Of a stretch of DNA of 64,000 nucleotides, positions 41,610 to 51,903 are shown in pieces. The notes beneath the pieces were generated by a model that saw only the letters and a program-made list of their open reading frames with translations, was not told the origin of the DNA and ran no database searches. Numbering within the stretch: position 1 is the stretch's first letter; every line of letters starts with the position of its first letter. The stretch spans positions 603,434 through 667,433 of the forward strand of contig BOKX01000001.1 of NCBI GenBank assembly GCA_016861205.1, in the 5' to 3' direction. Source of the stretch: Patescibacteria group bacterium. Its GTDB lineage: Bacteria; Patescibacteriota; Microgenomatia; UBA1400; PJMF01. Both the position numbers and the translations under genes were made by a program.

Positions 41610-42059
41610 CTAGTACTCAGCGATGACGATCTTCTTTTGGTTGAGCATGATCTCAAACGCACCCGGTTTTTGCATCAACTCTTCCATGTTTTCCGGCACA
41701 ATTTGCCAGCTCAAACCGTACTTATCCTTGCACCAGCCACATTGTTCGGAGCTGGGTACTGCCGAGAGTTGACTCCAGTAGTAGTCAATTTCGGCTTGAT
41801 CTTTACACATCACAGCCATGGAAATTGCTTCGGTAAACTTGAAGTCGTTGCCGGCGTTGATCGCTACAAACCGTTGGCCAAGCAACTCAAAGTCGACGGT
41901 CAAAACTTTACCAGCGAAATCTTTTTGAAAATCAGCCAATCCCTCCTTGGGATAGTAGGCCGTGCTCAACACTCGGCTATCTTTAAAGACTGACGTGTAA
42001 AACTCGACAGCCTCACTGGCGTTACCGGCAAACCAGAGGTTGGGGATGATTTTTTGCAT
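41610..42059 (-). CDS. VOC-family protein (3-demethylubiquinone-9 3-methyltransferase-like / PhnB)
   Basis: MQKIIPNLWFAGNASEAVEFYTSVF...FVAINAG...WCKDKYGLSWQIVP. Confidence 0.65.
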   Translation of the reverse strand: MQKIIPNLWFAGNASEAVEFYTSVFKDSRVLSTAYYPKEGLADFQKDFAGKVLTVDFELLGQRFVAINAGNDFKFTEAISMAVMCKDQAEIDYYWSQLSAVPSSEQCGWCKDKYGLSWQIVPENMEELMQKPGAFEIMLNQKKIVIAEY

Positions 42060-42126
42060 CTGCAGTCTCCTATGGGAGTGTTGGTAGTAAGGCAGTATAG
42101 CAGAAGTGCAATCTGATACTCATGCT

Positions 42127-42630
42127 TTATCGTTCCAGCTTTTTGCGCAACTCATCGATGACCGCTGCCTCCCAATACTTCATGGAAAACCAACCGATCA
42201 ATGGCCGGGCCACAATCCGCAACCAACGTTTATGAATGTTCACTTGATAGGTGTACTGAATCAGGGTGCCACCTGTCTGCTCGGACAATAACAACTCTTC
42301 ATGGCCAGAGGTTCCGAACTTGGGGCTTTCGTTGTCTGAAGTAAAACCTTTACCCGGCAAAATCTGGGTGTGCATCTTAACGGGAAACTCGCGACCGAAT
42401 GACTTGACAGTGGCTGCCATCTCCAGAGCGTTGCCCTGGCGCTTCACAACCCGAATGCCCGCGGCCACTTTGGGAAACAGCTCCGGCCAGTGTTCAAAGT
42501 CGGTCATGATGTCAAAGACTTGAGAAAGTGGGGCTTTAATCAGCCACTGAGCTTGGAGGGTAATGTCGGCGGGCATAAGAAGATGATAGCAGAAAATGTG
42601 GGACTCATCGAATTTTATTGATTGAATCAA
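42127..42630 (-). CDS. SRPBCC (START/polyketide-cyclase-like) family protein
   Basis: IKAPLSQVFDIMTDFEHWPELFP is the Polyketide_cyc2-type N-terminus. The true start is probably the internal MPADIT (42576). Confidence 0.55.
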   Translation of the reverse strand: MIQSIKFDESHIFCYHLLMPADITLQAQWLIKAPLSQVFDIMTDFEHWPELFPKVAAGIRVVKRQGNALEMAATVKSFGREFPVKMHTQILPGKGFTSDNESPKFGTSGHEELLLSEQTGGTLIQYTYQVNIHKRWLRIVARPLIGWFSMKYWEAAVIDELRKKLER

Positions 42631-43722
42631 TTAAGTTCGAGAACCCAACTGCCTACTCACCTCATCTACTGCTCGGGACATCTCTTCGATCTTGGCAGCG
42701 ATATTACCGACATTTAAACTTAGTCCGTTGATCGCCCGACTAATCGTATAAGCATCTTGAGCAGTTGAATATGTGTTGGCACTAATTTCTCTTGTGTTCC
42801 GTGCAATCTCTGTCGTACTTTTATCTATATTCCTTAAGCGTTCAATTTTTTCAATCTCTAAATTGGCTAAGGAGATAAGTGCTTCAACTCTTTGCTTCAG
42901 GTCTGTTAAAACTAAAAAGCCATAGTCTTGAATTGGCAAATCTTGTCCCAGAGCTTTTAATTTTGTTTTTACTAAATCAAATCCAGGAGTTTTGACTTGA
43001 GATCGCCAATTTTCTAATTGATGAGGATAGAAAGGCTCTGGAAGATCAGCTAAATACTGTTCTACCAAACAGCTAAGCAAGTCTTCCCTACGCTCGAAGA
43101 AGGGACGACCATAACTTATCATTGAACATGAATACTGGGGGACACCTTTTTTAGAGAATCCAAAATCTACACACAATTTATAGGGCTCATCAATTCTTTT
43201 TCTTTCTGACTTACCCTTATTGATTGGCAACCGGTGATCATAAAATATCGTAGAAATTGCCGCAGCATTTTCTAACCAGCGGCCAACTATACCATCAGTT
43301 ACATCATCTGCTGACGTAATTCCTTTTTTGACTTGCTCTAACATGTATTCACGGACTTTCTTCTCCCAATCCGAATGTGAGGGGTAAGGACGACGAAGCC
43401 AAGAAAGTATCCCATAGGGCAGATCAGTTGCCCCCGAACTAACACTAAAAACACTCCCCCATCTCTGCTGGCAAGCACCATTTATCTTATCAGTTAGTGC
43501 CTTAACGGCTTCATTTAAAGTCTCATCCTGTAAAAATCTCTCGGCATCTTGAAATCTGTTATCTGTCTCGAGCCGCGCTCGAAGTAGCTGATCTACTTCA
43601 GGGTATATGGCGTCTACTATGGTCTCTACTTCTTTCGCTTTGGCGGCGGCTGGATCCTTTATCATTCTCTGGGCATCAACTAAATCTTGAAAACTAGGTC
43701 CTTTTTTCGATTCGTGTGACAT
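42631..43722 (-). CDS. Hypothetical protein, island gene 3 (coiled-coil C-terminus)
   Basis: Low-GC ORF. Start placed at MSHESKK (cat 43720-43722) with a GAAAGGGA Shine-Dalgarno. The C-terminal ~90 aa is heptad-like (LANLEIEKIERLRNIDKSTTEIARNTREISANTYSTAQDAYTISRAINGLSLNVGNIAAKIEEMSRAVDEVSRQL). No known domain. Confidence 0.45.
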   Translation of the reverse strand: MSHESKKGPSFQDLVDAQRMIKDPAAAKAKEVETIVDAIYPEVDQLLRARLETDNRFQDAERFLQDETLNEAVKALTDKINGACQQRWGSVFSVSSGATDLPYGILSWLRRPYPSHSDWEKKVREYMLEQVKKGITSADDVTDGIVGRWLENAAAISTIFYDHRLPINKGKSERKRIDEPYKLCVDFGFSKKGVPQYSCSMISYGRPFFERREDLLSCLVEQYLADLPEPFYPHQLENWRSQVKTPGFDLVKTKLKALGQDLPIQDYGFLVLTDLKQRVEALISLANLEIEKIERLRNIDKSTTEIARNTREISANTYSTAQDAYTISRAINGLSLNVGNIAAKIEEMSRAVDEVSRQLGSRT

Positions 43723-43934
43723 AGTCCCTTTCAAAAGCGCATCGCTATTAAGAAACAATATTTTTTTAGTGCAAAATAAGTAGTGGCATTATATCACTGT
43801 GATATAGTTAGCAGTCTGCGACCGGCACAACTGCCATGTTCTTCGTCAGAACGGATATATTCATGAAACCATAACTTAGTGGTACTCAATTCAATTTGGC
43901 TCCCCGCCGTGGCAGAAATCAGGAACTGCTTTTT

Positions 43935-44954
43935 TTAAGAAAATTGTATATGGATATCTTTTAAAAGCTGACAGTTGCAACTCAAAGACTGACCACTACA
44001 CCTTGGGCATTGCTCTACATCACAACCAAAACAATGGTACTGCCCAAGAACAGCAAAACAGTCATGACATGAATTTTTTTCAGTTGATTCAATCCAGGTT
44101 ATTTTTCCCCCATCAACTTTCATTTCATCTGGTTCATCAAATTTCTCGTATCCATATTTTATTCTTCTAAACCTCTTTCCATGTAAAATAATTGTTTTTT
44201 CTTTTTGTGATTTATCAAACTCTTCATAGTATTGAAAATATGCGTAAAGTTTCATGGAAACATTGTTGAGCTCTTCAGTTGGGAAACCTGATTCTAACCT
44301 ATGCAACCCTTTGGTTCTGTTGCTATGAATTTTTTCAAAAGCTTTTCTAATTTCCCCATCCATACCCACACCTAATTTGTAAACTTCGTTGAGTAGAATA
44401 CCAAAGCGACCACTTTTCTCACCCGGCTTATGTCCATTTTTCTCAAGTAGAAATCTCGTCAGAAAACTATCGGCATCTTTTATATAATCCCAATTACTTA
44501 TTATTCCCATATCCCACCTTCTGAAAATAACTTCATACTCATGAGAAAAGGGGTCAGTAAAGGCACCTGGAATATAGTTGAATTGATTCAATTTTCCTAA
44601 AACATGCTTTTTTAAATACTTACTATATGGGTTTTCGAATCTGTGCTCAAGAAGTTGCTGATAGAGTGGAATGATTGCTTGATCCAAGACAGCTTCTCTA
44701 TTTTTCTTATCCAGAGCACATGAGTAGTAGTAAAGTCCTCTATTGAGAATCATCTCTTGCAACAGAGCATCAATAGAACCAGTTTGTCCATCAACAATAA
44801 TGTTGAAGCGCCCTCTGCCCAGATATTCAAAAGTAAATTTTGTATTTCTTGAATACCTCTTGCCCACTTGATTCAAAAATTCTAGAAAATTAATAGCGTG
44901 TGTGTGATATTTTGCTTTTACATTAATTATTTGATCGTATCCTGCCATATTCAC
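43935..44954 (-). CDS. Hypothetical protein, island gene 2 (C-terminal Cys cluster, zinc-ribbon-like)
   Basis: Very AT-rich ORF (~32% GC in sampled stretches). C-terminus CHDCFAVLGQYHCFGCDVEQCPRCSGQSLSCNC carries 10 Cys in 33 aa. No known domain. Confidence 0.45.
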   Translation of the reverse strand: MNMAGYDQIINVKAKYHTHAINFLEFLNQVGKRYSRNTKFTFEYLGRGRFNIIVDGQTGSIDALLQEMILNRGLYYYSCALDKKNREAVLDQAIIPLYQQLLEHRFENPYSKYLKKHVLGKLNQFNYIPGAFTDPFSHEYEVIFRRWDMGIISNWDYIKDADSFLTRFLLEKNGHKPGEKSGRFGILLNEVYKLGVGMDGEIRKAFEKIHSNRTKGLHRLESGFPTEELNNVSMKLYAYFQYYEEFDKSQKEKTIILHGKRFRRIKYGYEKFDEPDEMKVDGGKITWIESTEKNSCHDCFAVLGQYHCFGCDVEQCPRCSGQSLSCNCQLLKDIHIQFS

Positions 44955-45068
44955 AGAATTATATTGTAGATTTAGTCCAACAAAAGGTTCAAGCGTCTAA
45001 GACAGGGTAAGCTTTTTACTTGAGGGGGAAACGTTGCTCCATGTATGGAACTTTATCCGATCGCTGAA

Positions 45069-46145
45069 TTAAGCTGGCATTATTTTGACAAAACCCATCG
45101 CAATCAGCTCCTTGAGTAAATCCATAGCTTTTGCTTCCAATGCTCCTCCTGGAAAGTTGATGTAACCAAGGTCACTAAAGTCGCTCGGCAAATTCACTCC
45201 GTCTTCTTTAAAAATTATTACCTTTTCACCATAAAGCACGCTTGCTGCTCCCAATTCAAACACGACATTTGCATTTGGTTGAACAATATTTGAATCACCA
45301 TCAGTTGCTTCATCTTTTGACGAAAAAATAAAAATTGCTGAGCCACATTCGTGCATTGTATCTCTAACTTTTTGAGAAACAGGTCTGCCAGAGTGTGCTT
45401 CATGAATAGCAACTTTATGAGGAATGCCAAATTGATTTAATATTTTTTCTAGCTGAGTAAGCGGTTGCCTGTCCTTACCATGAGCTATGAAAATAGGCTT
45501 AAGGATATTTGATTTTGATTCTTCCTCTGGATTAATAACTTCTTGAGCTAAAATTTCTTGTTGATTCTCCTCAATTTCTAACTCTGTATTTTCTCCTAAA
45601 TCGGGGTCACTTTCCTCGCTGCCATTCAACATTACGTACAAAGAACCACTTATGTCGCGTATAATTCCTGTGTATTTTCCATTTTCAAGCAAGAGAGAAA
45701 CTGCTTCTTCACTAAATTCTCGAGATACATTGAATGTGACTTCTAATGTGTTTTTAAAAAAATCACCTTGAGGAAACTTGTTGTTTTGATAGTGACTATA
45801 GACTTTACTGAACAGTTCTGGCGTTAGGACAGCTTGTTTTTTTGCTTCATTTCTTTGTGCTTCAGAGAGTGGCTGAGTTATTTTCTTTCCTAAATCGGTG
45901 AGCTCAATGTTTTCAGCTTTTTCTGTTCCAAGTGTCAAACCATATTTGAAAGAGCAACTTAATAAGTCTCGAAAATTTGTACTCAAGGGTTTTATTCCTA
46001 AAGCATTTGCCAATAACAAGCGATTCATTGGCTTCCCAGCATTTTGATTTTGTATAGTCTCTGCAATTTTCAAAGACTCTTGTAAGGAATAAAGAGGAAA
46101 AGGTCTAACCCTTCTAGTTTTCTTCTGTTTATCTGCTGTCTCCAT
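45069..46145 (-). CDS. Island gene 1: two-domain protein with C-terminal TIR-like (COG4271/PF10137-type) nucleotide-binding domain
   Basis: The C-terminal ~130 aa (PIFIAHGKDRQPL...CGSAIFIFSSKDEATDGDS...NANVVFELGAASVLYGEKVIIFKEDGVNLPSDFSDLGYINF) follows the TIR-like consensus as I recall it (VFIVHG..., AIVLLTPDD, NVIFELGYF, VELPSDLxG). The N-terminal ~210 aa is unassigned. Confidence 0.5.
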   Translation of the reverse strand: METADKQKKTRRVRPFPLYSLQESLKIAETIQNQNAGKPMNRLLLANALGIKPLSTNFRDLLSCSFKYGLTLGTEKAENIELTDLGKKITQPLSEAQRNEAKKQAVLTPELFSKVYSHYQNNKFPQGDFFKNTLEVTFNVSREFSEEAVSLLLENGKYTGIIRDISGSLYVMLNGSEESDPDLGENTELEIEENQQEILAQEVINPEEESKSNILKPIFIAHGKDRQPLTQLEKILNQFGIPHKVAIHEAHSGRPVSQKVRDTMHECGSAIFIFSSKDEATDGDSNIVQPNANVVFELGAASVLYGEKVIIFKEDGVNLPSDFSDLGYINFPGGALEAKAMDLLKELIAMGFVKIMPA

Positions 46146-46191
46146 ACTCTACCTTTCTTGGGCAGAAATTTGGTCCGGATAAGCAACAGGT

Positions 46192-46266
46192 GGCTCCCCG
46201 ACTAGGACTCGAACCTAGAACCTTTTCGTTAACAGCGAATTGCTCTGCCATTGAGCTATCGGGGAA
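46192..46266 (-). tRNA. tRNA-Asn (anticodon GUU), CCA encoded
   Basis: Hand-folded cloverleaf: acceptor TCCCCGA/TCGGGGA, D-arm GCTC-AATGGCA-GAGC, anticodon arm ATTCG-CTGTTAA-CGAAA (U33, GUU, A37), T-arm CTAGG-TTCGAGT-CCTAG, discriminator G, CCA; 75 nt. TACAAT -10-like hexamer about 12 nt upstream. Confidence 0.85.
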
Positions 46267-46503
46267 TGTTAACTCGGGTATTGTAGCAAACCTGCAGCCA
46301 CCTTGCCAGCCCTGCTGGCCACTGATTTGAGCCAAACTCTGCTCCGCCACGCTCCGCAGATACCCTACTTTAACTTCAAATAATTCTACATTTGACATAT
46401 TTCTTACACATTGTGTCAGCCGCGTTCAAGGATTAAACTCCACAATTATAAGAAAATATTCTATTACTATCTGCCGCAGGTCGGCTAGAAACCTGCAGAA
46501 CCT

Positions 46504-47088
46504 ATGACCACTGCCCCAACCTTACTGCCGCCACTCTTAGCCACTCAAACTGCCCAGCCACATGAGTACTTTTACATTTTTGACCCGCACATGCAACCCA
46601 TTGGCTTGAAGCGTCGCTATCATGTCCACCATGATGGTGACTGGCACCGAGGTGTGCAGCTCAACATTCGCTACCAAGATGAAATCCTCATCCAACGCCG
46701 CTCTGACCAGGTTGATATTGCTCAGCACTTGCTCGACCAAAGCCTAGCTACCCAGCTCATCTTGGCTGACAATGACAACGAGAAACAGGCACTGATCCGC
46801 GGCTTGGCGACTGAGCTGGGCTACCAAGCGAAACCACGCCAGCTGCGTAAAGTGGCTGGCCCTCGACGAATTATAAAGCGCTACTCGCACCATCCGGATC
46901 TCTGGAACCGCGAGTTTGTGTCACTGTACGAGCTGCGATTGCCAACTCGCCACCAGTTCACTCCCCACTCGCCAAAGGTCAGCAGTGTCGAGTGGTGGCC
47001 GACCGCCAAAGTTCTCAGTCTCTGGCAACACAACCCAAGCGCCTTCACCCAAACCTTCAGTATGTGGCTCAAGGAGACCCAACTATGA
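46504..47088 (+). CDS. Nudix-fold-like hypothetical protein (degenerate Nudix box)
   Basis: HHDGDWHRGVQLNIRYQDEILIQRRS resembles the Nudix N-terminal strand region. The box is degenerate (EKQALIRGLATELGY). The stop overlaps the next gene's start (ATGA). Confidence 0.35.
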   Translation: MTTAPTLLPPLLATQTAQPHEYFYIFDPHMQPIGLKRRYHVHHDGDWHRGVQLNIRYQDEILIQRRSDQVDIAQHLLDQSLATQLILADNDNEKQALIRGLATELGYQAKPRQLRKVAGPRRIIKRYSHHPDLWNREFVSLYELRLPTRHQFTPHSPKVSSVEWWPTAKVLSLWQHNPSAFTQTFSMWLKETQL

Positions 47089-47894
47089 CTGAGCTCAACT
47101 ACCCGCTGCGAGCGGTTATTTTGGCTGGCGGCCTCGGCACCCGCCTGCGAGAAGTCACCCACGGCCTGATTCCTAAAGCTGCCGTTACCATCGAACCAAG
47201 TAACCGCACACCTGGCTATCAGTACTTGATCGATGTCTGCCGCTATCTTGGCATCACCGATATCGCCTTGGTGGCAGACACTTTTCTGGAGTACTACCAG
47301 CAGCAACTGCCAACCAATCGCGATGTTCACCTCATTCACCAACACCGCTACCCCAACACTGGGGGAGCCATTTGGGAAGCTATGCAAACGCTTGATGCGC
47401 ATCACCAGTTGTTGCTCCTCAGTTCAGACTTCATCTTCGCCCCGAGTGACCTGCGCCGGTTGCTAACTGCCCACCAACCGGGGCAGTTGACTTGGGCCAC
47501 CTTGCCGCTGGGGCAACCTGAGATGGCCGGCTACGAAGGTCTGCTGGTCGACACTGATCATCAAGTCTGGGGTGATACCCAACTGACGCCCGATCTGACC
47601 CCACTAGCTGAAGCTCAGCCTGTCACTAAACTCGGCATCCAAATCGTCGATCCCTGCTTAGTCACCACCGCACTTGAACTCGCTGCCACCACCACCGACA
47701 ACGAACACCAGCTTTTCGACTGGTACTGGACTCTCTGCCCTCTGCTCGAAAGTCACAACTACCACCGGCTAGTGGCTGGCCAACCGTCGCACATCACGGC
47801 GGTGGAGTTTGCCCACCCTGCCCTTGATTATGGAACTCCAGAAAGGTTAGCGTTGGCCAGATGGTGGACTGGTCTGCTGAAACTCTATGCTTGA
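47085..47894 (+). CDS. Nucleotidyltransferase (sugar-phosphate/MobA-like NTP_transferase fold)
   Basis: AVILAGGLGTRLRE glycine-rich NTP-binding loop. Start at ATG 47085 with an AAGGAG Shine-Dalgarno 8 nt upstream; the track ORF start at 46992 is upstream and out of favour. Confidence 0.55.
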   Translation: MTELNYPLRAVILAGGLGTRLREVTHGLIPKAAVTIEPSNRTPGYQYLIDVCRYLGITDIALVADTFLEYYQQQLPTNRDVHLIHQHRYPNTGGAIWEAMQTLDAHHQLLLLSSDFIFAPSDLRRLLTAHQPGQLTWATLPLGQPEMAGYEGLLVDTDHQVWGDTQLTPDLTPLAEAQPVTKLGIQIVDPCLVTTALELAATTTDNEHQLFDWYWTLCPLLESHNYHRLVAGQPSHITAVEFAHPALDYGTPERLALARWWTGLLKLYA

Positions 47895-48420
47895 ACCAAC
47901 CTATCGCTACTGTCCACAATGCGCCTCATTCTTGCGACTAAAAGTCATTGATCGTCTGACACGCCAAGTTTGTACCAGTTGTGGCTGGATCAAGTACTTA
48001 CATACCCCGATCGTGGGGGTGGTGATTTTGCAAAATCATAAAGGCCAAATCTTACTGGTCCAACGTGCCCAAGCTCCATTCAAAGGTCAGTGGAGTTTGC
48101 CTGGTGGGTTTGCTGAGTTTGGCGAACATCCGCTCGACACCGCCCAGCGCGAGCTACGGGAAGAAACGGGCTTGGTCGTCACCGACTTGAGCATCGTTAA
48201 CGTGTACATCAGTGATGAACACCCGACCACCAACTCGCTGGTGGTGGTGTGTCAGGCCGTGTTGCCCAAAGCTCCGCGGCGAGTGACCGCCCACGACGAC
48301 ATTGTTCAGGCCACTTGGTTTAAACCAAACCTTGAACAACTGCCACCACTCGCTTTTGCCACTCAACAGTTAGCTCTTACATCTTGGCTCACCAGCCAGA
48401 AAGGTCACCATGACTCATAA
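47887..48420 (+). CDS. NUDIX hydrolase with N-terminal zinc ribbon (NudC-like architecture)
   Basis: CPQC...CTSC zinc ribbon, then a perfect Nudix box GGFAEFGEHPLDTAQRELREETGL. Confidence 0.75.
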   Translation: MLEPTYRYCPQCASFLRLKVIDRLTRQVCTSCGWIKYLHTPIVGVVILQNHKGQILLVQRAQAPFKGQWSLPGGFAEFGEHPLDTAQRELREETGLVVTDLSIVNVYISDEHPTTNSLVVVCQAVLPKAPRRVTAHDDIVQATWFKPNLEQLPPLAFATQQLALTSWLTSQKGHHDS

Positions 48421-48685
48421 TCTTGAACTCCGTGCCTTGTCGACACAGCCACCGACAGCCGAACACCCAACGCCAGAACCAGAGTACCTGCTGCTCATCG
48501 GTCCCCACACGCTGCTGGCTACCCTAGAAAGCTACGCTGCCGCACTAACTGATCAGCTGGGTGAAACTGCTGGCCACCGCACTTCCGTCCCTGCCAGCGA
48601 TGGCTGGCGACACAAAATCAGAATTGAGCTAACAGGTCCGCTACCCAAACCAGTCAGTGAACTAGCAAAGAGCATTGGTTTGTAA
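48410..48685 (+). CDS. Hypothetical protein (91 aa)
   Basis: ORF-only. Overlaps the preceding gene by 11 nt. High GC. Confidence 0.3.
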   Translation: MTHNLELRALSTQPPTAEHPTPEPEYLLLIGPHTLLATLESYAAALTDQLGETAGHRTSVPASDGWRHKIRIELTGPLPKPVSELAKSIGL

Positions 48686-48709
48686 TTTTCCTCACACTCG
48701 AGCTGTAAT

Positions 48710-49231
48710 TTGATAGCTAAACGCTACCTTGTGTCAGACACTCAGGTAGTTCACAATTCCCGAGGGTTTTCATACGAAAGGATCACGATGGGCGGACCCG
48801 CGCTAGCTGAACGCAACTTAGTACACACTTCTTCACCGCCCGATATTCCGTTTTTAACCCACGAGCTCATACCTCACTCAGCCAACCAAGCGCCCAGCGG
48901 TGAAGTGGTAGTAGTCTACCCCGGTGATACGCTGCTCCAAACCATCTCATACTGTGTTCAAAATACCGAGATCATGGTGACGCTCACGAACTTGGTCTTG
49001 GATCGCCCGGCACCGGCTGGGTACATTCCGGTGGAAACGACGATGAAACAGCACCGCCACAATGGCCACACCACAGCAAGTGAGACACCGGCAGACGAAT
49101 CGGCCGACGACTCGGCAGAAAACACCACTGATCACAAAGTGACTGGTTTACTCTCTGTCGGATTTTATGGTTTGGCGAACGGCACGCGATTGGTGTACCA
49201 ACCAACTAGGCCCGCTGCTCAGCCTGATTAA
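48710..49231 (+). CDS. Hypothetical protein (173 aa)
   Basis: ORF-only. Acidic/His-containing C-terminal tail. Confidence 0.3.
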   Translation: MIAKRYLVSDTQVVHNSRGFSYERITMGGPALAERNLVHTSSPPDIPFLTHELIPHSANQAPSGEVVVVYPGDTLLQTISYCVQNTEIMVTLTNLVLDRPAPAGYIPVETTMKQHRHNGHTTASETPADESADDSAENTTDHKVTGLLSVGFYGLANGTRLVYQPTRPAAQPD

Positions 49232-50129
49232 AGAAAGCGGCGGTGAGTAAGTAGCGAATCAGCCACCGTTGGTACGCAGGTTTTGCATGATTGGGATCCT
49301 TCAGAGCTTCCAGCACCTTGGGGCCAAATCGTTTTTCGAGCCGCTCAAATTTTTGTGTGTGCACTAAACGCGAGTAGGTGTGACCTTTAACTTCATAGGT
49401 TGCATCTAAGTAGTACTTGAGAGCATCAACTATCAATAACCACTGATCACCAGTGCGCCGTAGGACTAAACTACTGTTTGCCCAGTAATTCCGGCTTGGT
49501 ATCTCCATAGCAATATCGTTGGTCTTCATCAGTCGTAATGCTTCGACTTCGTCAAGCTCATACCTGAAAATAACTTGTTGGTTTGGTTGTCTAAAAAACT
49601 TGCTGACGTAGTAATCACAGACGGCTTCCCGCAACTCTAAGTTGTACTCATCGAGTTTAATCAAAACATGCATTAGCTCGTGGCAGGTCAGTAACATATG
49701 GGTCATGCATGTAAAGTCATGATCACGCTGACGAGCCGGTGGGTAGATCGGTGCTACGCCAGTCGCTACCAATGGAATGGTGGGGACTTCGTGCTCAGCA
49801 CCATTATCTAGAACCAGATTTAAAATTGAGAAACCTTTTAGCACTATCCGGTCATCTACCGGTTCAAGCTGATTATCTATGATCATATCCTGCAGTAATC
49901 CCACCTGTGATGAATCAGCTTGCGTCAAATGTTCGAGGGTAGCCCACGCTGCGTCACTCCGCAGTGGAATCCTTGAGCCAGCTAGTTCTTGCTCCATAAA
50001 GGTTAGAAAGGCCCGACCAGTTTCGTAAATTGCTGCGTGCTCCGTGGGTGACGTGCCTTCAATTTCCAGTCGCCAGGCGTCGATCAAATCAGTTGTCGCT
50101 GCCTGCGACATATCTAGTTCTGGTTTCAT
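49206..50129 (-). CDS. Hypothetical protein with HExxH motif (possible zinc metallopeptidase-like)
   Basis: LTCHELMHVLIKLDE contains HELMH. No other family features recognised. Confidence 0.35.
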   Translation of the reverse strand: MKPELDMSQAATTDLIDAWRLEIEGTSPTEHAAIYETGRAFLTFMEQELAGSRIPLRSDAAWATLEHLTQADSSQVGLLQDMIIDNQLEPVDDRIVLKGFSILNLVLDNGAEHEVPTIPLVATGVAPIYPPARQRDHDFTCMTHMLLTCHELMHVLIKLDEYNLELREAVCDYYVSKFFRQPNQQVIFRYELDEVEALRLMKTNDIAMEIPSRNYWANSSLVLRRTGDQWLLIVDALKYYLDATYEVKGHTYSRLVHTQKFERLEKRFGPKVLEALKDPNHAKPAYQRWLIRYLLTAAFFNQAEQRA

Positions 50130-50137
50130 AGAAAACG

Positions 50138-51310
50138 TTAATCCAAAAAGTCTTGGAGCATTTTGCGGCGGCTGGGGTGCTTCAACTTGCGCAGAGCCTT
50201 GGCTTCAATTTGCCGAATGCGTTCACGCGTCACGCCAAACTTTTGGCCGACTTCTTCTAAGGTCATCATTTTGTTGCCACTCAGACCAAACCGCATCCGC
50301 AGCACTTTGGCCTCACGGTCGGACAGCGCACTGAGCACCTCTTCGATGTTCTCGCGCAGCATTTGTTGACTGGTAGCTTCGTACGGTGAAATTTGGCGAT
50401 CATCAGCGATGAAGTCACCGAGCACACTGTCATCATCACTCTCACCCACTGGTGATTCGAGTGACGTGGTGTTTTGAGAAATCTTCAAAATCTCTCGGAC
50501 CTTATCGGCGTCCATGCCCTCCATGGCTGCGGCAATTTCTTCGGGGGTGGGCTCGCGACCCAACTCCTGCATCAGCTTGCGGGCGGTACGCATCAGCTTG
50601 TTGATGGTCTCGACCATGTGCACTGGAATACGGATGGTCCGAGCTTGGTCAGCGATAGCGCGGGTAATGGCTTGGCGAATCCACCAGGTGGCGTAGGTTG
50701 AGAACTTGAAACCTTTGGTCCAGTCGTACTTTTCGACGGCCCGGATCAAACCTTTATTACCTTCTTGGATCAAGTCCAAAAACGTCATGCCTCGGCCGAT
50801 GTACTTTTTGGCAATAGAAACCACCAACCGCAAGTTGGATGCTGTCAGTTTCTCTTTGGCTTTCAGATCACCAGCCTCAGCTTTTTGAGCCAACCGAATT
50901 TCGTCTTCCCGATTGAGCAACGGAATGCGGCCGATCTCTTTGAGGTACATCCGCACTGGGTCGGACACACCGTCTGTTTCCAGCGATGACAACACGTCCA
51001 GCTCGCGCTGCAACACATCAGTGTCATCAACTTTGGTGTCTTCAGATACTGACTCAAAAATATCGATACTGTCTTGGAGAATCTGGGCGTAAAAATCATC
51101 CAGCTCATCGAGGTACAACTCAGGCTCAACGAACACGTCCAAGACTTCGTCTTGGGTTACAAACCCACGTTGTTTGGCTTTTTTGAGCAGGTCTTGAATA
51201 TCCTGCAACAAAGCCTTGGGCACACTTGGTGTCTTAGTAGCTGACTTGGCAGTTGATTTAGTGGCAGATTTGGTTGATTTAGAAGGCATAACGGATTCCA
51301 TATTATACAC
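50138..51310 (-). CDS. rpoD: RNA polymerase sigma-70 factor RpoD
   Basis: Region 2 ([41 protein letters not shown]), region 3 and region 4 ([29 protein letters not shown]). The start may be the internal MPSKSTK (51289). Confidence 0.9.
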
Positions 51311-51369: not shown

Positions 51370-51903
51370 ATGATTGAGACCGAAGCTCCCAAATCACTTG
51401 GCATAGCAGACAGTATTCTTGAGTCGATTGGTCAGGCTGACTTCATTTCTCGATCAGGTCAAAAAATGAGATATGTTAACTCAGAAAATGAGATTAGCAT
51501 ATATACCTATGATGCCGACATCACCAAGCTCAGCATACAAATTGACAGCGATGGCTTCATCCATTTTGACGTTTACACCAAAGGCTACAAGGGTGATCCA
51601 AACCTGAAACACCCTGATTTTTTTGCTAAAGAGTTTATGCAAAAAGCTATAGCCATATTCCGAAAAAGAGGCTACCGCATCCGTGGTTTCAAGTCTACTT
51701 GGCTCAACTTTGGCAACTTCACCAGTGACAACACCCTCGCTTATCTCAGCAATAAGCAAGCTGGAATGCCCGCCGCCGAAGCTGCTCTTAACACATGGAG
51801 TGGCAAACTAGCCAAATCCTTCGGCTTCAAAAAAGTAACTCAGGTTGAAGAAGACAGTACCACATCTGGCGAGTTGATCTCTGTTGACGTCACCTTTGAG
51901 TAA
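51370..51903 (+). CDS. Hypothetical protein (177 aa), lower-GC gene between rpoD and gdhA
   Basis: ORF-only. Roughly 43% GC by eye. No motif recognised. Confidence 0.35.
   Translation: MIETEAPKSLGIADSILESIGQADFISRSGQKMRYVNSENEISIYTYDADITKLSIQIDSDGFIHFDVYTKGYKGDPNLKHPDFFAKEFMQKAIAIFRKRGYRIRGFKSTWLNFGNFTSDNTLAYLSNKQAGMPAAEAALNTWSGKLAKSFGFKKVTQVEEDSTTSGELISVDVTFE

Follow-up and report, generated by a model that had tools for sequence, protein, structure and literature searches.

The interval between rpoD and the tRNA-Asn gene of a Patescibacteria group bacterium (contig BOKX01000001.1) was analyzed within a window of 64,000 nucleotides (nt), and all coordinates given here are positions in that window. 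We consider it reasonably likely that this interval is a hotspot of gene turnover holding two distinct components: a native-like orphan gene that encodes an HExxH protein, and a GC-richer operon of five genes, the first three of which make up a rearranged, probably chimeric copy of a rare enzyme module for which a reaction sequence can be proposed. The three genes encode a Nudix-fold protein (NudL194), a nucleotidyltransferase (NTase269) and a zinc-ribbon Nudix hydrolase (ZnNudix177); together with the two orphan genes that follow, they are called the block below.

46504-47088, plus strand: NudL194, 194 amino acids (aa), a Nudix-fold protein of the type seen in isopentenyl diphosphate (IPP) isomerase (IDI) and YfcD, with a degenerate Nudix box
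47085-47894, plus strand: NTase269, 269 aa, a nucleotidyltransferase of the sugar-1-phosphate type from a rare, divergent family
47887-48420, plus strand: ZnNudix177, 177 aa, a canonical Nudix hydrolase whose N-terminus carries a four-Cys zinc ribbon
48410-48685, plus strand: orf91, an orphan that overlaps the Nudix gene by 11 nt and is translationally coupled to it
48788-49231, plus strand: orf147, an orphan (173 aa when read from the TTG at 48710), called as a gene in L001 and L105

A recurrent nucleotidyltransferase-Nudix module

The first four genes of the block overlap in the manner of an operon, by 4 nt (NudL194 and NTase269), 8 nt (NTase269 and ZnNudix177) and 11 nt (ZnNudix177 and orf91). 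The start of NTase269 was placed at the ATG at 47085, which overlaps the NudL194 stop codon as ATGA and agrees with the L001 gene call and with a cluster of 269-aa proteins. An earlier note, made from the DNA letters alone, had described five co-directional plus-strand genes, several overlapping by 4-11 nt, followed by a convergent HExxH protein, and the open reading frames (ORFs) confirm this layout.

Cassettes related to the block were assembled into a set of 23 loci, several of them redundant, drawn from the contigs of NudL homologs, the contigs of closer NTase relatives and six metagenome loci. The NTase gene lies immediately upstream of the NudL gene in 17/17 loci that show both, the NTase matches are full length at 25-36% identity (E = 2e-25 for L082), and a Nudix and/or MazG-like gene then follows in nearly all cassettes. 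Two architectures could be distinguished. Type A consists of NTase, NudL and a Nudix protein of 146-195 aa (L082-84, L087, L094, L096/97); the type-A Nudix protein that was scanned (L094) has NudE as its best NCBIfam model, below the cut-off. Type B consists of NTase, NudL, a MazG-like protein of 108-114 aa that resembles YpjD and DCTPP1, a 388-aa radical S-adenosylmethionine (SAM)-like protein and, often, a Nudix protein (L085/86, L088-93, L099-104). The third component of the module is thus interchangeable between two unrelated pyrophosphohydrolase folds, Nudix and MazG-like. The radical-SAM-like partner (388-399 aa) has an invariant CxxxCxxC (L085, L092, L093, L098, L101, L102, L104; e.g. 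L093:1803-2969) and is cut to ~140 aa in L088-L091 and L103; it gave weak PF04055 matches (2.8e-4), and no relative was found by sequence in NCBIfam or the PDB. About half of the cassettes have the MazG-like and radical-SAM-like proteins in tight linkage.

One homolog, P0056 (L098:1962-3479), is a natural NTase-NudL fusion of 505 aa with MazG-like and radical-SAM-like genes adjoining it, and provides a Rosetta-stone link between the two families. The short L095 contig carries an NTase followed by a Nudix gene and shows no NudL. The chromosomal sites of the cassettes differ: they lie between RecG and TyrRS (L087), by DNA ligase (L096), beside an NB-ARC/TPR protein and by tRNA arrays. The order NudL, NTase, Nudix was found in the window only, and 3/5 block genes belong to the recurrent unit. 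The earlier note had proposed a search for the five-gene arrangement in other genomes; its three enzyme genes do recur, but orf91, orf147 (or its 173-aa form) and HExxH307, the HExxH protein, have no counterpart in any cassette locus, and HExxH307 is not part of the recurrent module. Neither the family libraries nor the searched literature contained a description of the NTase/NudL/Nudix combination.

Some cassettes border tRNA genes, namely tRNA-Leu and tRNA-Gly in L100/L101 and tRNA-Gly in L088, L090, L092 and L103. In L100/L101 (7102-7268 and 10004-10959) the L101 cassette has tRNA-Leu(cag) on one side and a tRNA-Gly(tcc)-Pro-Leu array on the other. In L088 (9565-15157), tRNA-Gly is separated from tRNA-Pro-Leu by 5 kb of inserted DNA that encodes a large serine recombinase, and the same place in L092 (3396-5354) is occupied by an rve-type integrase. 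Because the cassettes often border tRNAs and these arrays show recombinase-bearing insertions, gene flux in the cassette genomes seems to favor the neighborhoods of tRNAs.

The window was compared with a strain from another sample, represented by one 4.5-kb contig (L105) that carries 62 differences from the window and no insertions or deletions. The three core genes of the block show 25 synonymous and 5 nonsynonymous changes combined (P = 4e-10), distributed as 5 and 0 in NudL194, 13 and 3 in NTase269, and 7 and 2 in ZnNudix177; these genes are under purifying selection. The orphans are probably coding as well, with 6 synonymous and 4 nonsynonymous changes in orf147 (P = 0.03) and 4 and 2 in orf91 (P = 0.06), the latter giving weak coding support. 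Taken together, the three enzyme genes belong to a rare recurrent module kept under purifying selection, of which the window holds a reshuffled, minimal, GC-rich variant.

NTase269 matches Pfam NTP_transferase (PF00483) with 46.1 bits (cut-off 21.2, E = 5.9e-12). It contains the nucleoside triphosphate (NTP)-binding loop LAGGLGTRL; the motif that the earlier note had quoted for this protein, RAVILAGGLGTRL, is present, as is the perfect Nudix box it had seen in the zinc-ribbon protein. Seven residues (G17, G19, R21, K32, D116, D249 and G251) do not vary among 25 family members; by what is known of RmlA/GlmU-type enzymes, we take them to be the NTP loop, the catalytic Lys and two metal-binding Asp residues. 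The family is small: an exhaustive search of 1.84 billion proteins gave ~31 cluster representatives at E < 1e-10, and a word-indexed search returned no NTase269 homolog of >32% identity outside its own species. The nearest PDB entries are HddC (5xhw, 1.4e-16), the dual sugar-1-phosphate nucleotidyltransferase ST0452, LicC and GlmU. Assignment to HddC, GlmU, RmlA, ManC, GalU or MurU fails, as the NCBIfam equivalogs score 15-41 bits against cut-offs of 250-725. We conclude that NTase269 is, by prediction, an active nucleotidyltransferase for a phospho-acceptor. The annotation by hidden Markov models that the earlier note had called for places NTase269 in the sugar-1-phosphate type and yields no specific enzyme, and it gives the 194-aa protein a weak NUDIX match (0.0016). 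The note's broader suggestion of nucleotide or nucleotide-sugar chemistry was well founded, given the complete catalytic set of a sugar-1-phosphate nucleotidyltransferase and the recurrence of the arrangement.

NudL194 falls below the threshold of Pfam NUDIX (18.9 bits against a cut-off of 21.1, E = 0.0016) and does not match the NCBIfam models for IDI and YfcD. Its family comprises ~12 homologs at roughly 50% identity and has 45 invariant columns, among them H42, H48 and E137, the last within the sequence NREF and a candidate counterpart of the catalytic or metal-binding Glu in the ExE region of the IDI/YfcD branch. In a Foldseek search, the AlphaFold2 (AF2) model of NudL194 (predicted local distance difference test (pLDDT) score 89) found E. 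coli IDI first (1hx3; E = 6e-12, template modeling (TM) score 0.76/0.82, root mean square deviation 2.1 Å), followed by human IDI and YfcD (2fkb, TM 0.67-0.81), and profile searches agree weakly (YfcD 0.045, IDI1 0.06). H42 and H48 align with two N-terminal metal-ligand histidines of IDI. The TNxCCxHP motif of IDI aligns to DQSLATQL, which places A82 at the position of the catalytic Cys and Q84 at that of the His, both invariant in the family. In the Nudix box the family keeps E91, R99, E103 and E104, and Gly replaces the Glu of the RE pair; the box of the window copy reads L85x5D91x7R99-G-L-A-T103-E104-L-G (G100), in which D91 is a conservative replacement for E91 and T103 is not a conservative one for E103. 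With A82 for the Cys, Q84 for the His and a degenerate box, NudL194 is therefore not an IPP isomerase, nor is it a canonical Nudix hydrolase. Its conserved polar residues form a putative site suited to a diphosphate-linked ligand. Two other ideas about this protein were rejected: it shows no similarity to ZnNudix177 that would make the two paralogs, and a viral origin finds no relatives of NudL among 2.9 million viral contigs.

ZnNudix177 has Pfam matches to NUDIX (1e-22, 81 bits) and to Zn_ribbon_Nudix (PF14803; 1.9e-8, 34.5 bits against a cut-off of 25.6). A CxxC...CxxC ribbon, with the cysteines in CPQC...CTSC, precedes the perfect Nudix box GGFAEFGEHPLDTAQRELREETGL; as read from the sequence, GFAEFGEHPLDTAQRELREETGL fits the pattern GX5EX7REUXEEXGU. 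The best PDB match is an uncharacterized Nudix protein (3cng, 9.5e-13). ZnNudix177 scores below the cut-off of every NCBIfam equivalog and fits the NAD diphosphatase and NadM-Nudix models weakly (5e-12 to 7e-11). In NADH pyrophosphatases of the NudC type a motif, SQPWPFPxS, lies downstream of the Nudix box. ZnNudix177 does not qualify as a NudC-type enzyme, as NF001299 gives 45.9 bits against a cut-off of 158 and the sequence after its box, VVTDLSIVNVYISDEHPTTNS, lacks SQPWPFPxS.

The interval between rpoD and tRNA-Asn

The block is bounded on its left by the divergent spacer and tRNA-Asn, and on its right by the convergent HExxH307 gene, with rpoD next. The features around it are:

46191-46265, minus strand: tRNA-Asn (GTT) with encoded CCA (ARAGORN; Rfam tRNA, 67.5 bits)
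46266-46503, no strand: divergent spacer of 238 bp with a promoter-like site, a pair of 10-mers, a hairpin and an imperfect inverted repeat
49206-50129, minus strand: HExxH307, a 307-aa orphan with the motif CHELMH, convergent with orf147 and directly downstream of rpoD
50138-51310, minus strand: rpoD, the core gene bounding the variable interval, 54%-92% identical among the 80 rpoD loci kept
42631-46145, minus strand: AT-rich island of three genes (p375, p339 and TIR358) on the 3' side of tRNA-Asn

The genome is a small one of the candidate phyla radiation (CPR) type and belongs to the Patescibacteria (Microgenomates-like). Its relatives were represented by the 80 rpoD loci kept, with which the block genes were compared by tblastn. 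The run p610-p140-TrxB-GDH-rpoD is syntenic among these relatives, and in many of them rpoD is followed by a co-oriented tRNA-Asn; tRNA-Asn and rpoD are thus conserved anchors of the locus. The distance between the two ranges from 0.4 to 4.8 kb: it is 0.4 kb in L004 and L022, 0.5-0.7 kb in L015, L024 and L007, 1-2 kb in L006, L008, L005, L020 and L011, and 3.5-4.8 kb in L012, L013 and L046. The genes within it are unrelated and differ by lineage, and their translations read as GIY-YIG, glycosyltransferase, nitroreductase-like, endonuclease/phosphatase-like and FemAB-like proteins, among others. In the window, the six genes from tRNA-Asn to rpoD, the three genes of the AT-rich island and p177 (see below) all lacked a tblastn match in the 80 loci. 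In the closest species, L002, whose rpoD is 92% identical, rpoD is followed by a different gene, of 237 aa, and L003 (rpoD 86% identical) has a CobW-like GTPase and others there. Backbone genes from beyond the AT-rich island (SRPBCC167, VOC149 and p161) are found near tRNA-Asn in L030, L039 and L043. Because the backbone is kept and the genes on either side of the tRNA have no match in the 80 loci, both flanks appear to be lineage-specific insertions into a conserved frame, and the rpoD-tRNA-Asn interval is a clade-wide hotspot of gene turnover.

Three further observations concern these loci. Between rpoD and GDH, which are ~60 bp apart in L002, the window carries a 177-aa orphan, p177 (51370-51903, plus strand, GC 0.436), which is another small lineage-specific insertion. 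In two loci labeled Gottesmanbacteria a canonical Nudix gene of 146-147 aa is divergent from tRNA-Asn, as NudL is in the window (L044:12340-12783 and L046:15239-15679); a specific link between these genes and NudL194 or ZnNudix177 was rejected, the similarity being that of Nudix proteins in general. Lastly, many of the closest rpoD relatives (L002-L046) were deposited as 'uncultured Pseudomonadales' or 'Gammaproteobacteria', and in sequence and synteny they group with metagenome-assembled genomes of Patescibacteria, so that these labels look mis-assigned.

The tRNA lies at a junction in base composition, as the earlier note had claimed. The mean GC of the window is 0.479. The five-gene block (46504-49231), judged by eye in that note to be about 55% GC, has a computed GC of 0.544, the maximum among all 2.7-kb stretches (mean 0.478, standard deviation (sd) 0.029), and the other side of the tRNA (42631-46190) has the window minimum, 0.378. 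The note's description of atypical DNA on both sides, AT-rich on one and GC-rich on the other, therefore holds in that both flanks are window extremes; the AT side is clearly atypical and the GC side moderately so. The tetranucleotide deviation reaches z = +5 in the AT-rich island and is about z = +1.6 in the block. GC at third codon positions (GC3) is 0.28-0.34 in the island genes, or -2.2 to -3.1 sd, and 0.55-0.63 in the block genes, with NudL194 (0.63) and NTase269 (0.62) at about +2 sd; the core genes rpoD (0.59), GDH (0.59) and VOC149 (0.61) come close to the block. The HExxH307 gene, with a GC of 0.474, is compositionally ordinary. Uniform composition, or a block conserved throughout the clade next to tRNA-Asn, had been named in the earlier note as results that would speak against it; instead, windowed GC and tetranucleotide analysis show that composition is non-uniform, and the synteny comparison shows that the block is not conserved at tRNA-Asn in the clade.

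The AT-rich island starts 45 bp past the 3' end of tRNA-Asn and thus sits in the classical 3' position. TIR358 carries a TIR domain of the CAP12/Pycsar type (PF10137, 1.5e-17; PADLOC PDC-S35, 6e-20); p375 is coiled-coil-like with a weak MCPsignal match, and p339 has a Cys-rich, zinc-finger-like C-terminus.

The spacer on the other side of the tRNA had been put at 230 bp in the earlier note, 8 bp short of its true length. The 10-mer and the GC hairpin reported there do exist, with coordinates that had been about 5 bp off: the window contains just two copies of the 10-mer AAACCTGCAG, at 46288-46297 and 46489-46498, and the hairpin is at 46305-46319. The hairpin and the first copy of the 10-mer overlap a promoter-like site that would serve the tRNA (46309-46280, minus strand; CTGGCA-18-TACAAT plus an upstream TG); the second copy lies 5 nt ahead of the NudL194 start codon. 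The 10-mer repeat is unremarkable and at the level expected by chance, because direct repeats of at least 10 bp turn up in 3.8% of spacers simulated with a first-order Markov model and in 6% of the actual 238-bp windows taken from this sequence. The spacer RNA has a folding z-score of -3.0, which is due to an imperfect inverted repeat (46281-46298 and 46473-46490, 78% complementary). These motifs are free of substitutions in L105, which is uninformative at 2.5% divergence. We assign no role in insertion to the 10-mer, the hairpin or the inverted repeat.

No match to orf91 was found in Pfam, NCBIfam, PADLOC or PHROGs, and its homologs come from contigs of the same species only; orf147 has no Pfam or NCBIfam match. 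HExxH307 has no Pfam match and a single homolog in 5.8 billion proteins (P0198, 65% identity), in which the CHELxH motif is conserved; an AF2 model from the three-sequence alignment (pLDDT 38) was unusable. The last ~50 residues of HExxH307 (49206-49360) are almost 100% identical to P0198, which indicates that the C-terminal segment is likely under strong constraint.

Origin of the block and rival explanations

The strain comparison also bears on the history of the block. Divergence between the window and L105 is 1.9% over 46194-49205, from the tRNA through the block, and 0.4% over HExxH307 and rpoD (P = 3e-5), with 35 synonymous changes in the former segment and 1 in the latter (P = 4e-6). 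The drop is sharp and falls where orf147 and HExxH307 converge, which implies a recombination boundary near 49060-49391; the block therefore has a recent history separate from that of its right-hand neighbors. The genes within the block also differ in their closest relatives. NTase269 is nearest to group 2 of the cassettes (L094-L098; pairwise scores of 353-377, against 173-245 for group 1), whereas NudL194 is nearest to group 1 (L082-L093; 384-429, against 236-288 for group 2). Because of these discordant relationships and the unique gene order, the window cassette is probably a chimeric assembly. In most other genomes the GC of the cassette is at or below that of the host flanks, and it is higher only in the window and L094; GC-richness is therefore not intrinsic to these genes, and that of the block suggests a GC-richer donor. 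We infer that the block was probably acquired by recombination into a variable region rather than by tRNA-targeted integration.

Several observations weigh against this picture of an imported, working module. The GC3 excess is ~2 sd and is almost equaled by core genes, and composition alone is for that reason no proof of foreign origin. The donor lineage was not found, the best NTase homolog being 36% identical, and the strain comparison rests on the single L105 contig. The contigs that bear the cassettes are assigned taxonomically in a loose manner, tblastn against named loci giving weak support for Patescibacteria. No substrate can be named, as the NCBIfam equivalog scores of NTase269 and ZnNudix177 are far below their cut-offs. 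NudL may be non-catalytic, because the catalytic Cys of IDI is absent (A82) and the window copy has also lost two acidic residues of the box. Finally, most cassettes contain MazG-like and radical-SAM-like genes that the window copy does not have, so this copy may not do the same job as the others.

The earlier note had suggested that the pattern would fit repeated insertions at the tRNA. Under classic tRNA-targeted integration, successive elements integrating at tRNA-Asn would have left an AT-rich and a GC-rich island, with the 10-bp repeat as an att-like scar. As in tRNA-associated genomic islands, both flanks are compositional extremes missing from relatives, and the AT side, directly after the tRNA 3' end, carries a TIR gene that is a defense candidate; cassettes elsewhere often border tRNAs and there have insertions with a serine recombinase (L088) or an rve integrase (L092). 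We nevertheless regard this explanation as unlikely. No integrase, recombinase or transposase domain is encoded by the ORFs of 42000-51300 (Pfam, NCBIfam and PHROGs), and no direct repeat of the tRNA 3' end (46191-46215) occurs in 41900-46600 (repeat search, seed 9), so that att-like 3'-end repeats in the AT-rich island were rejected; the 10-mer was rejected as an insertion scar as well, being a chance-level repeat whose copies both lie in the same spacer and flank no island. Moreover, the GC-rich block is on the tRNA 5' side, which is not the usual integration side of tRNA-targeted islands, and its GC excess is near that of core genes. It is doubtful, too, that the block is an old native operon, lost repeatedly in relatives, with a GC content that reflects amino-acid or codon bias. 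Its GC3 range does overlap the values of rpoD, GDH and VOC149, its tetranucleotide deviation is small, there are no mobility genes, and Patescibacteria are known for genome reduction. This account has to be set against the lack of the block in all 80 rpoD loci (0/80), including relatives with 92%, 86% and 80% identical rpoD, the different chromosomal positions of the homologous cassettes, the discordant relationships of NTase and NudL, and the discontinuity of strain divergence at the border of the block.

Two further explanations concern function. The cassettes might be a conflict system, acting against phage or in host interaction by depleting NTPs or, with help from the radical-SAM-like protein in the long cassettes, by making a modified nucleotide, in analogy to viperin-type chain terminators. 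Their distribution is sporadic, they deviate in composition in most hosts, their neighbors elsewhere include an NB-ARC/TPR STAND protein, a PDC-M05A-like MNT, Fic, DUF2726 and recombinases, and the window block lies across the tRNA from the TIR defense candidate; the tight linkage of the MazG-like and CxxxCxxC radical-SAM-like proteins in about half of the cassettes would also fit. This nevertheless seems improbable. With PADLOC 2.0 and PHROGs the block shows generic Nudix similarity only (candidate PDC-S07), with nothing for NTase269, NudL194, orf91, orf173 or HExxH307, and no cassette protein fits a PADLOC model beyond that similarity. The absence of NudL from viral contigs, the lack of the MazG-like and radical-SAM-like genes in the window, and the housekeeping surroundings of some cassettes (RecG and TyrRS in L087, DNA ligase in L096) also count against it. 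Very unlikely, in our view, is a known housekeeping pair of nucleotide-sugar or NAD metabolism, such as ManC with GDP-mannose mannosyl hydrolase, HddC-type heptose activation, or NAD/ADP-ribose turnover of the NadM-Nudix kind. The best matches of the NTase are HddC (1.4e-16), ManC-type enzymes and GlmU, ZnNudix177 has its weak fit to the NAD diphosphatase and NadM-Nudix models, and pairs of Nudix and nucleotidyltransferase, as in NadM-Nudix, regulate product pools (PMC9503650). Yet the equivalog scores are 41, 27 and 46 against cut-offs of 292, 300 and 158, NTase269 has the GlmU/RmlA fold and not the HIGH-motif fold of NadM, the known pairs include neither an IDI-like third protein nor an NTase-NudL fusion, and the window shows no adjacent gene for sugar modification or for a glycosyltransferase.

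Proposed reactions and known parallels

If the block is indeed a rearranged module in a turnover hotspot, its three enzymes could act in sequence. The NTase would join an NTP to a phosphorylated small molecule, X-phosphate, to give a nucleoside diphosphate (NDP)-linked product, NDP-X, and pyrophosphate (PPi). NudL, which may work physically with the NTase because the two are fused in one homolog, would bind the diphosphate-linked product and either transform it or gate turnover. The canonical Nudix enzyme would then hydrolyze NDP-X to a nucleoside monophosphate (NMP) and X-phosphate, which would release a finished product or limit the pool. The net reaction of NTase and Nudix, NTP to NMP and PPi, is the same as that of MazG, and because of this a role in depleting NTPs or sanitizing nucleotides may also be considered.

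With their tiny genomes, Patescibacteria rely on other cells as a source of nucleotides, and a conserved module of nucleotide enzymes is therefore unlikely to be idle. The module has changed chromosomal sites, remains under purifying selection and has become fused in one lineage. What emerges is two cassette architectures, a Rosetta-stone fusion and two small uncurated protein families for which invariant residues are defined, and the rpoD-tRNA-Asn hotspot should be useful for finding other accessory functions. Should the product be a new NDP-linked metabolite or nucleotide analog, it would add to the short list of CPR-specific biochemistry. A bolder proposal, to which we attach a low probability, is that the NTase-NudL core, with a Nudix or MazG-like hydrolase and the radical-SAM-like enzyme, is an undescribed CPR nucleotide-based system that makes a modified nucleotide or NDP-linked effector for phage conflict or host-cell interaction, in which case the window would hold a reshuffled minimal version in a defense-type hotspot beside a TIR gene.

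ManC with GDP-mannose mannosyl hydrolase (Gmm) is a known pair of synthase and Nudix enzyme. The FrbI Nudix protein reportedly removes the nucleotide in FR-900098 biosynthesis (a finding attributed to Johannes et al. 2010). The pathways that use a nucleotide handle on phosphonates, with the cytidylyltransferases Fom1 and FrbH, may follow the same logic as that proposed here, in that a nucleotidyltransferase attaches NMP, tailoring takes place and a Nudix enzyme removes the handle. By contrast, the window has no phosphoenolpyruvate (PEP) mutase or other phosphonate genes and the NTase has no specific relationship to Fom1 or FrbH, so that the parallel is one of mechanistic analogy. Cytidylylated phosphonate intermediates have been described, and a YfcD-type Nudix protein (AlpB) is listed in a phosphonate cluster (PMC8976061). 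In NadM-Nudix, a Nudix domain paired with a nucleotidyltransferase regulates the product pool (PMC9503650). As is proposed for the window, NadM-Nudix and ManC/Gmm combine the synthase of an NDP compound with an adjacent or fused Nudix enzyme that hydrolyzes that compound; unlike in these pairs, the NTase does not have the NadM fold, ZnNudix177 is not a Gmm or NudC equivalog, and the known pairs have no third, IDI-like component.

The individual proteins can be placed in the same way. With the PF00483 enzymes (HddC, ST0452, LicC, the GlmU N-terminal domain and RmlA) the NTase family shares the GGxGTRL loop, the catalytic Lys, two Mg-binding Asp residues and DxG; NTase269 is only 25-36% identical to anything outside its own species, and its family differs in being always paired with, and once fused to, an IDI-like Nudix-fold protein. 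NudL shares its predicted fold with type-1 Idi and E. coli YfcD, and its two N-terminal histidines align with the metal ligands of IDI. It departs from them in having A82 for the catalytic Cys of IDI and Q84 for the neighboring His ligand, and in its degenerate box, which has RG for RE and, in the window copy, also T for E.

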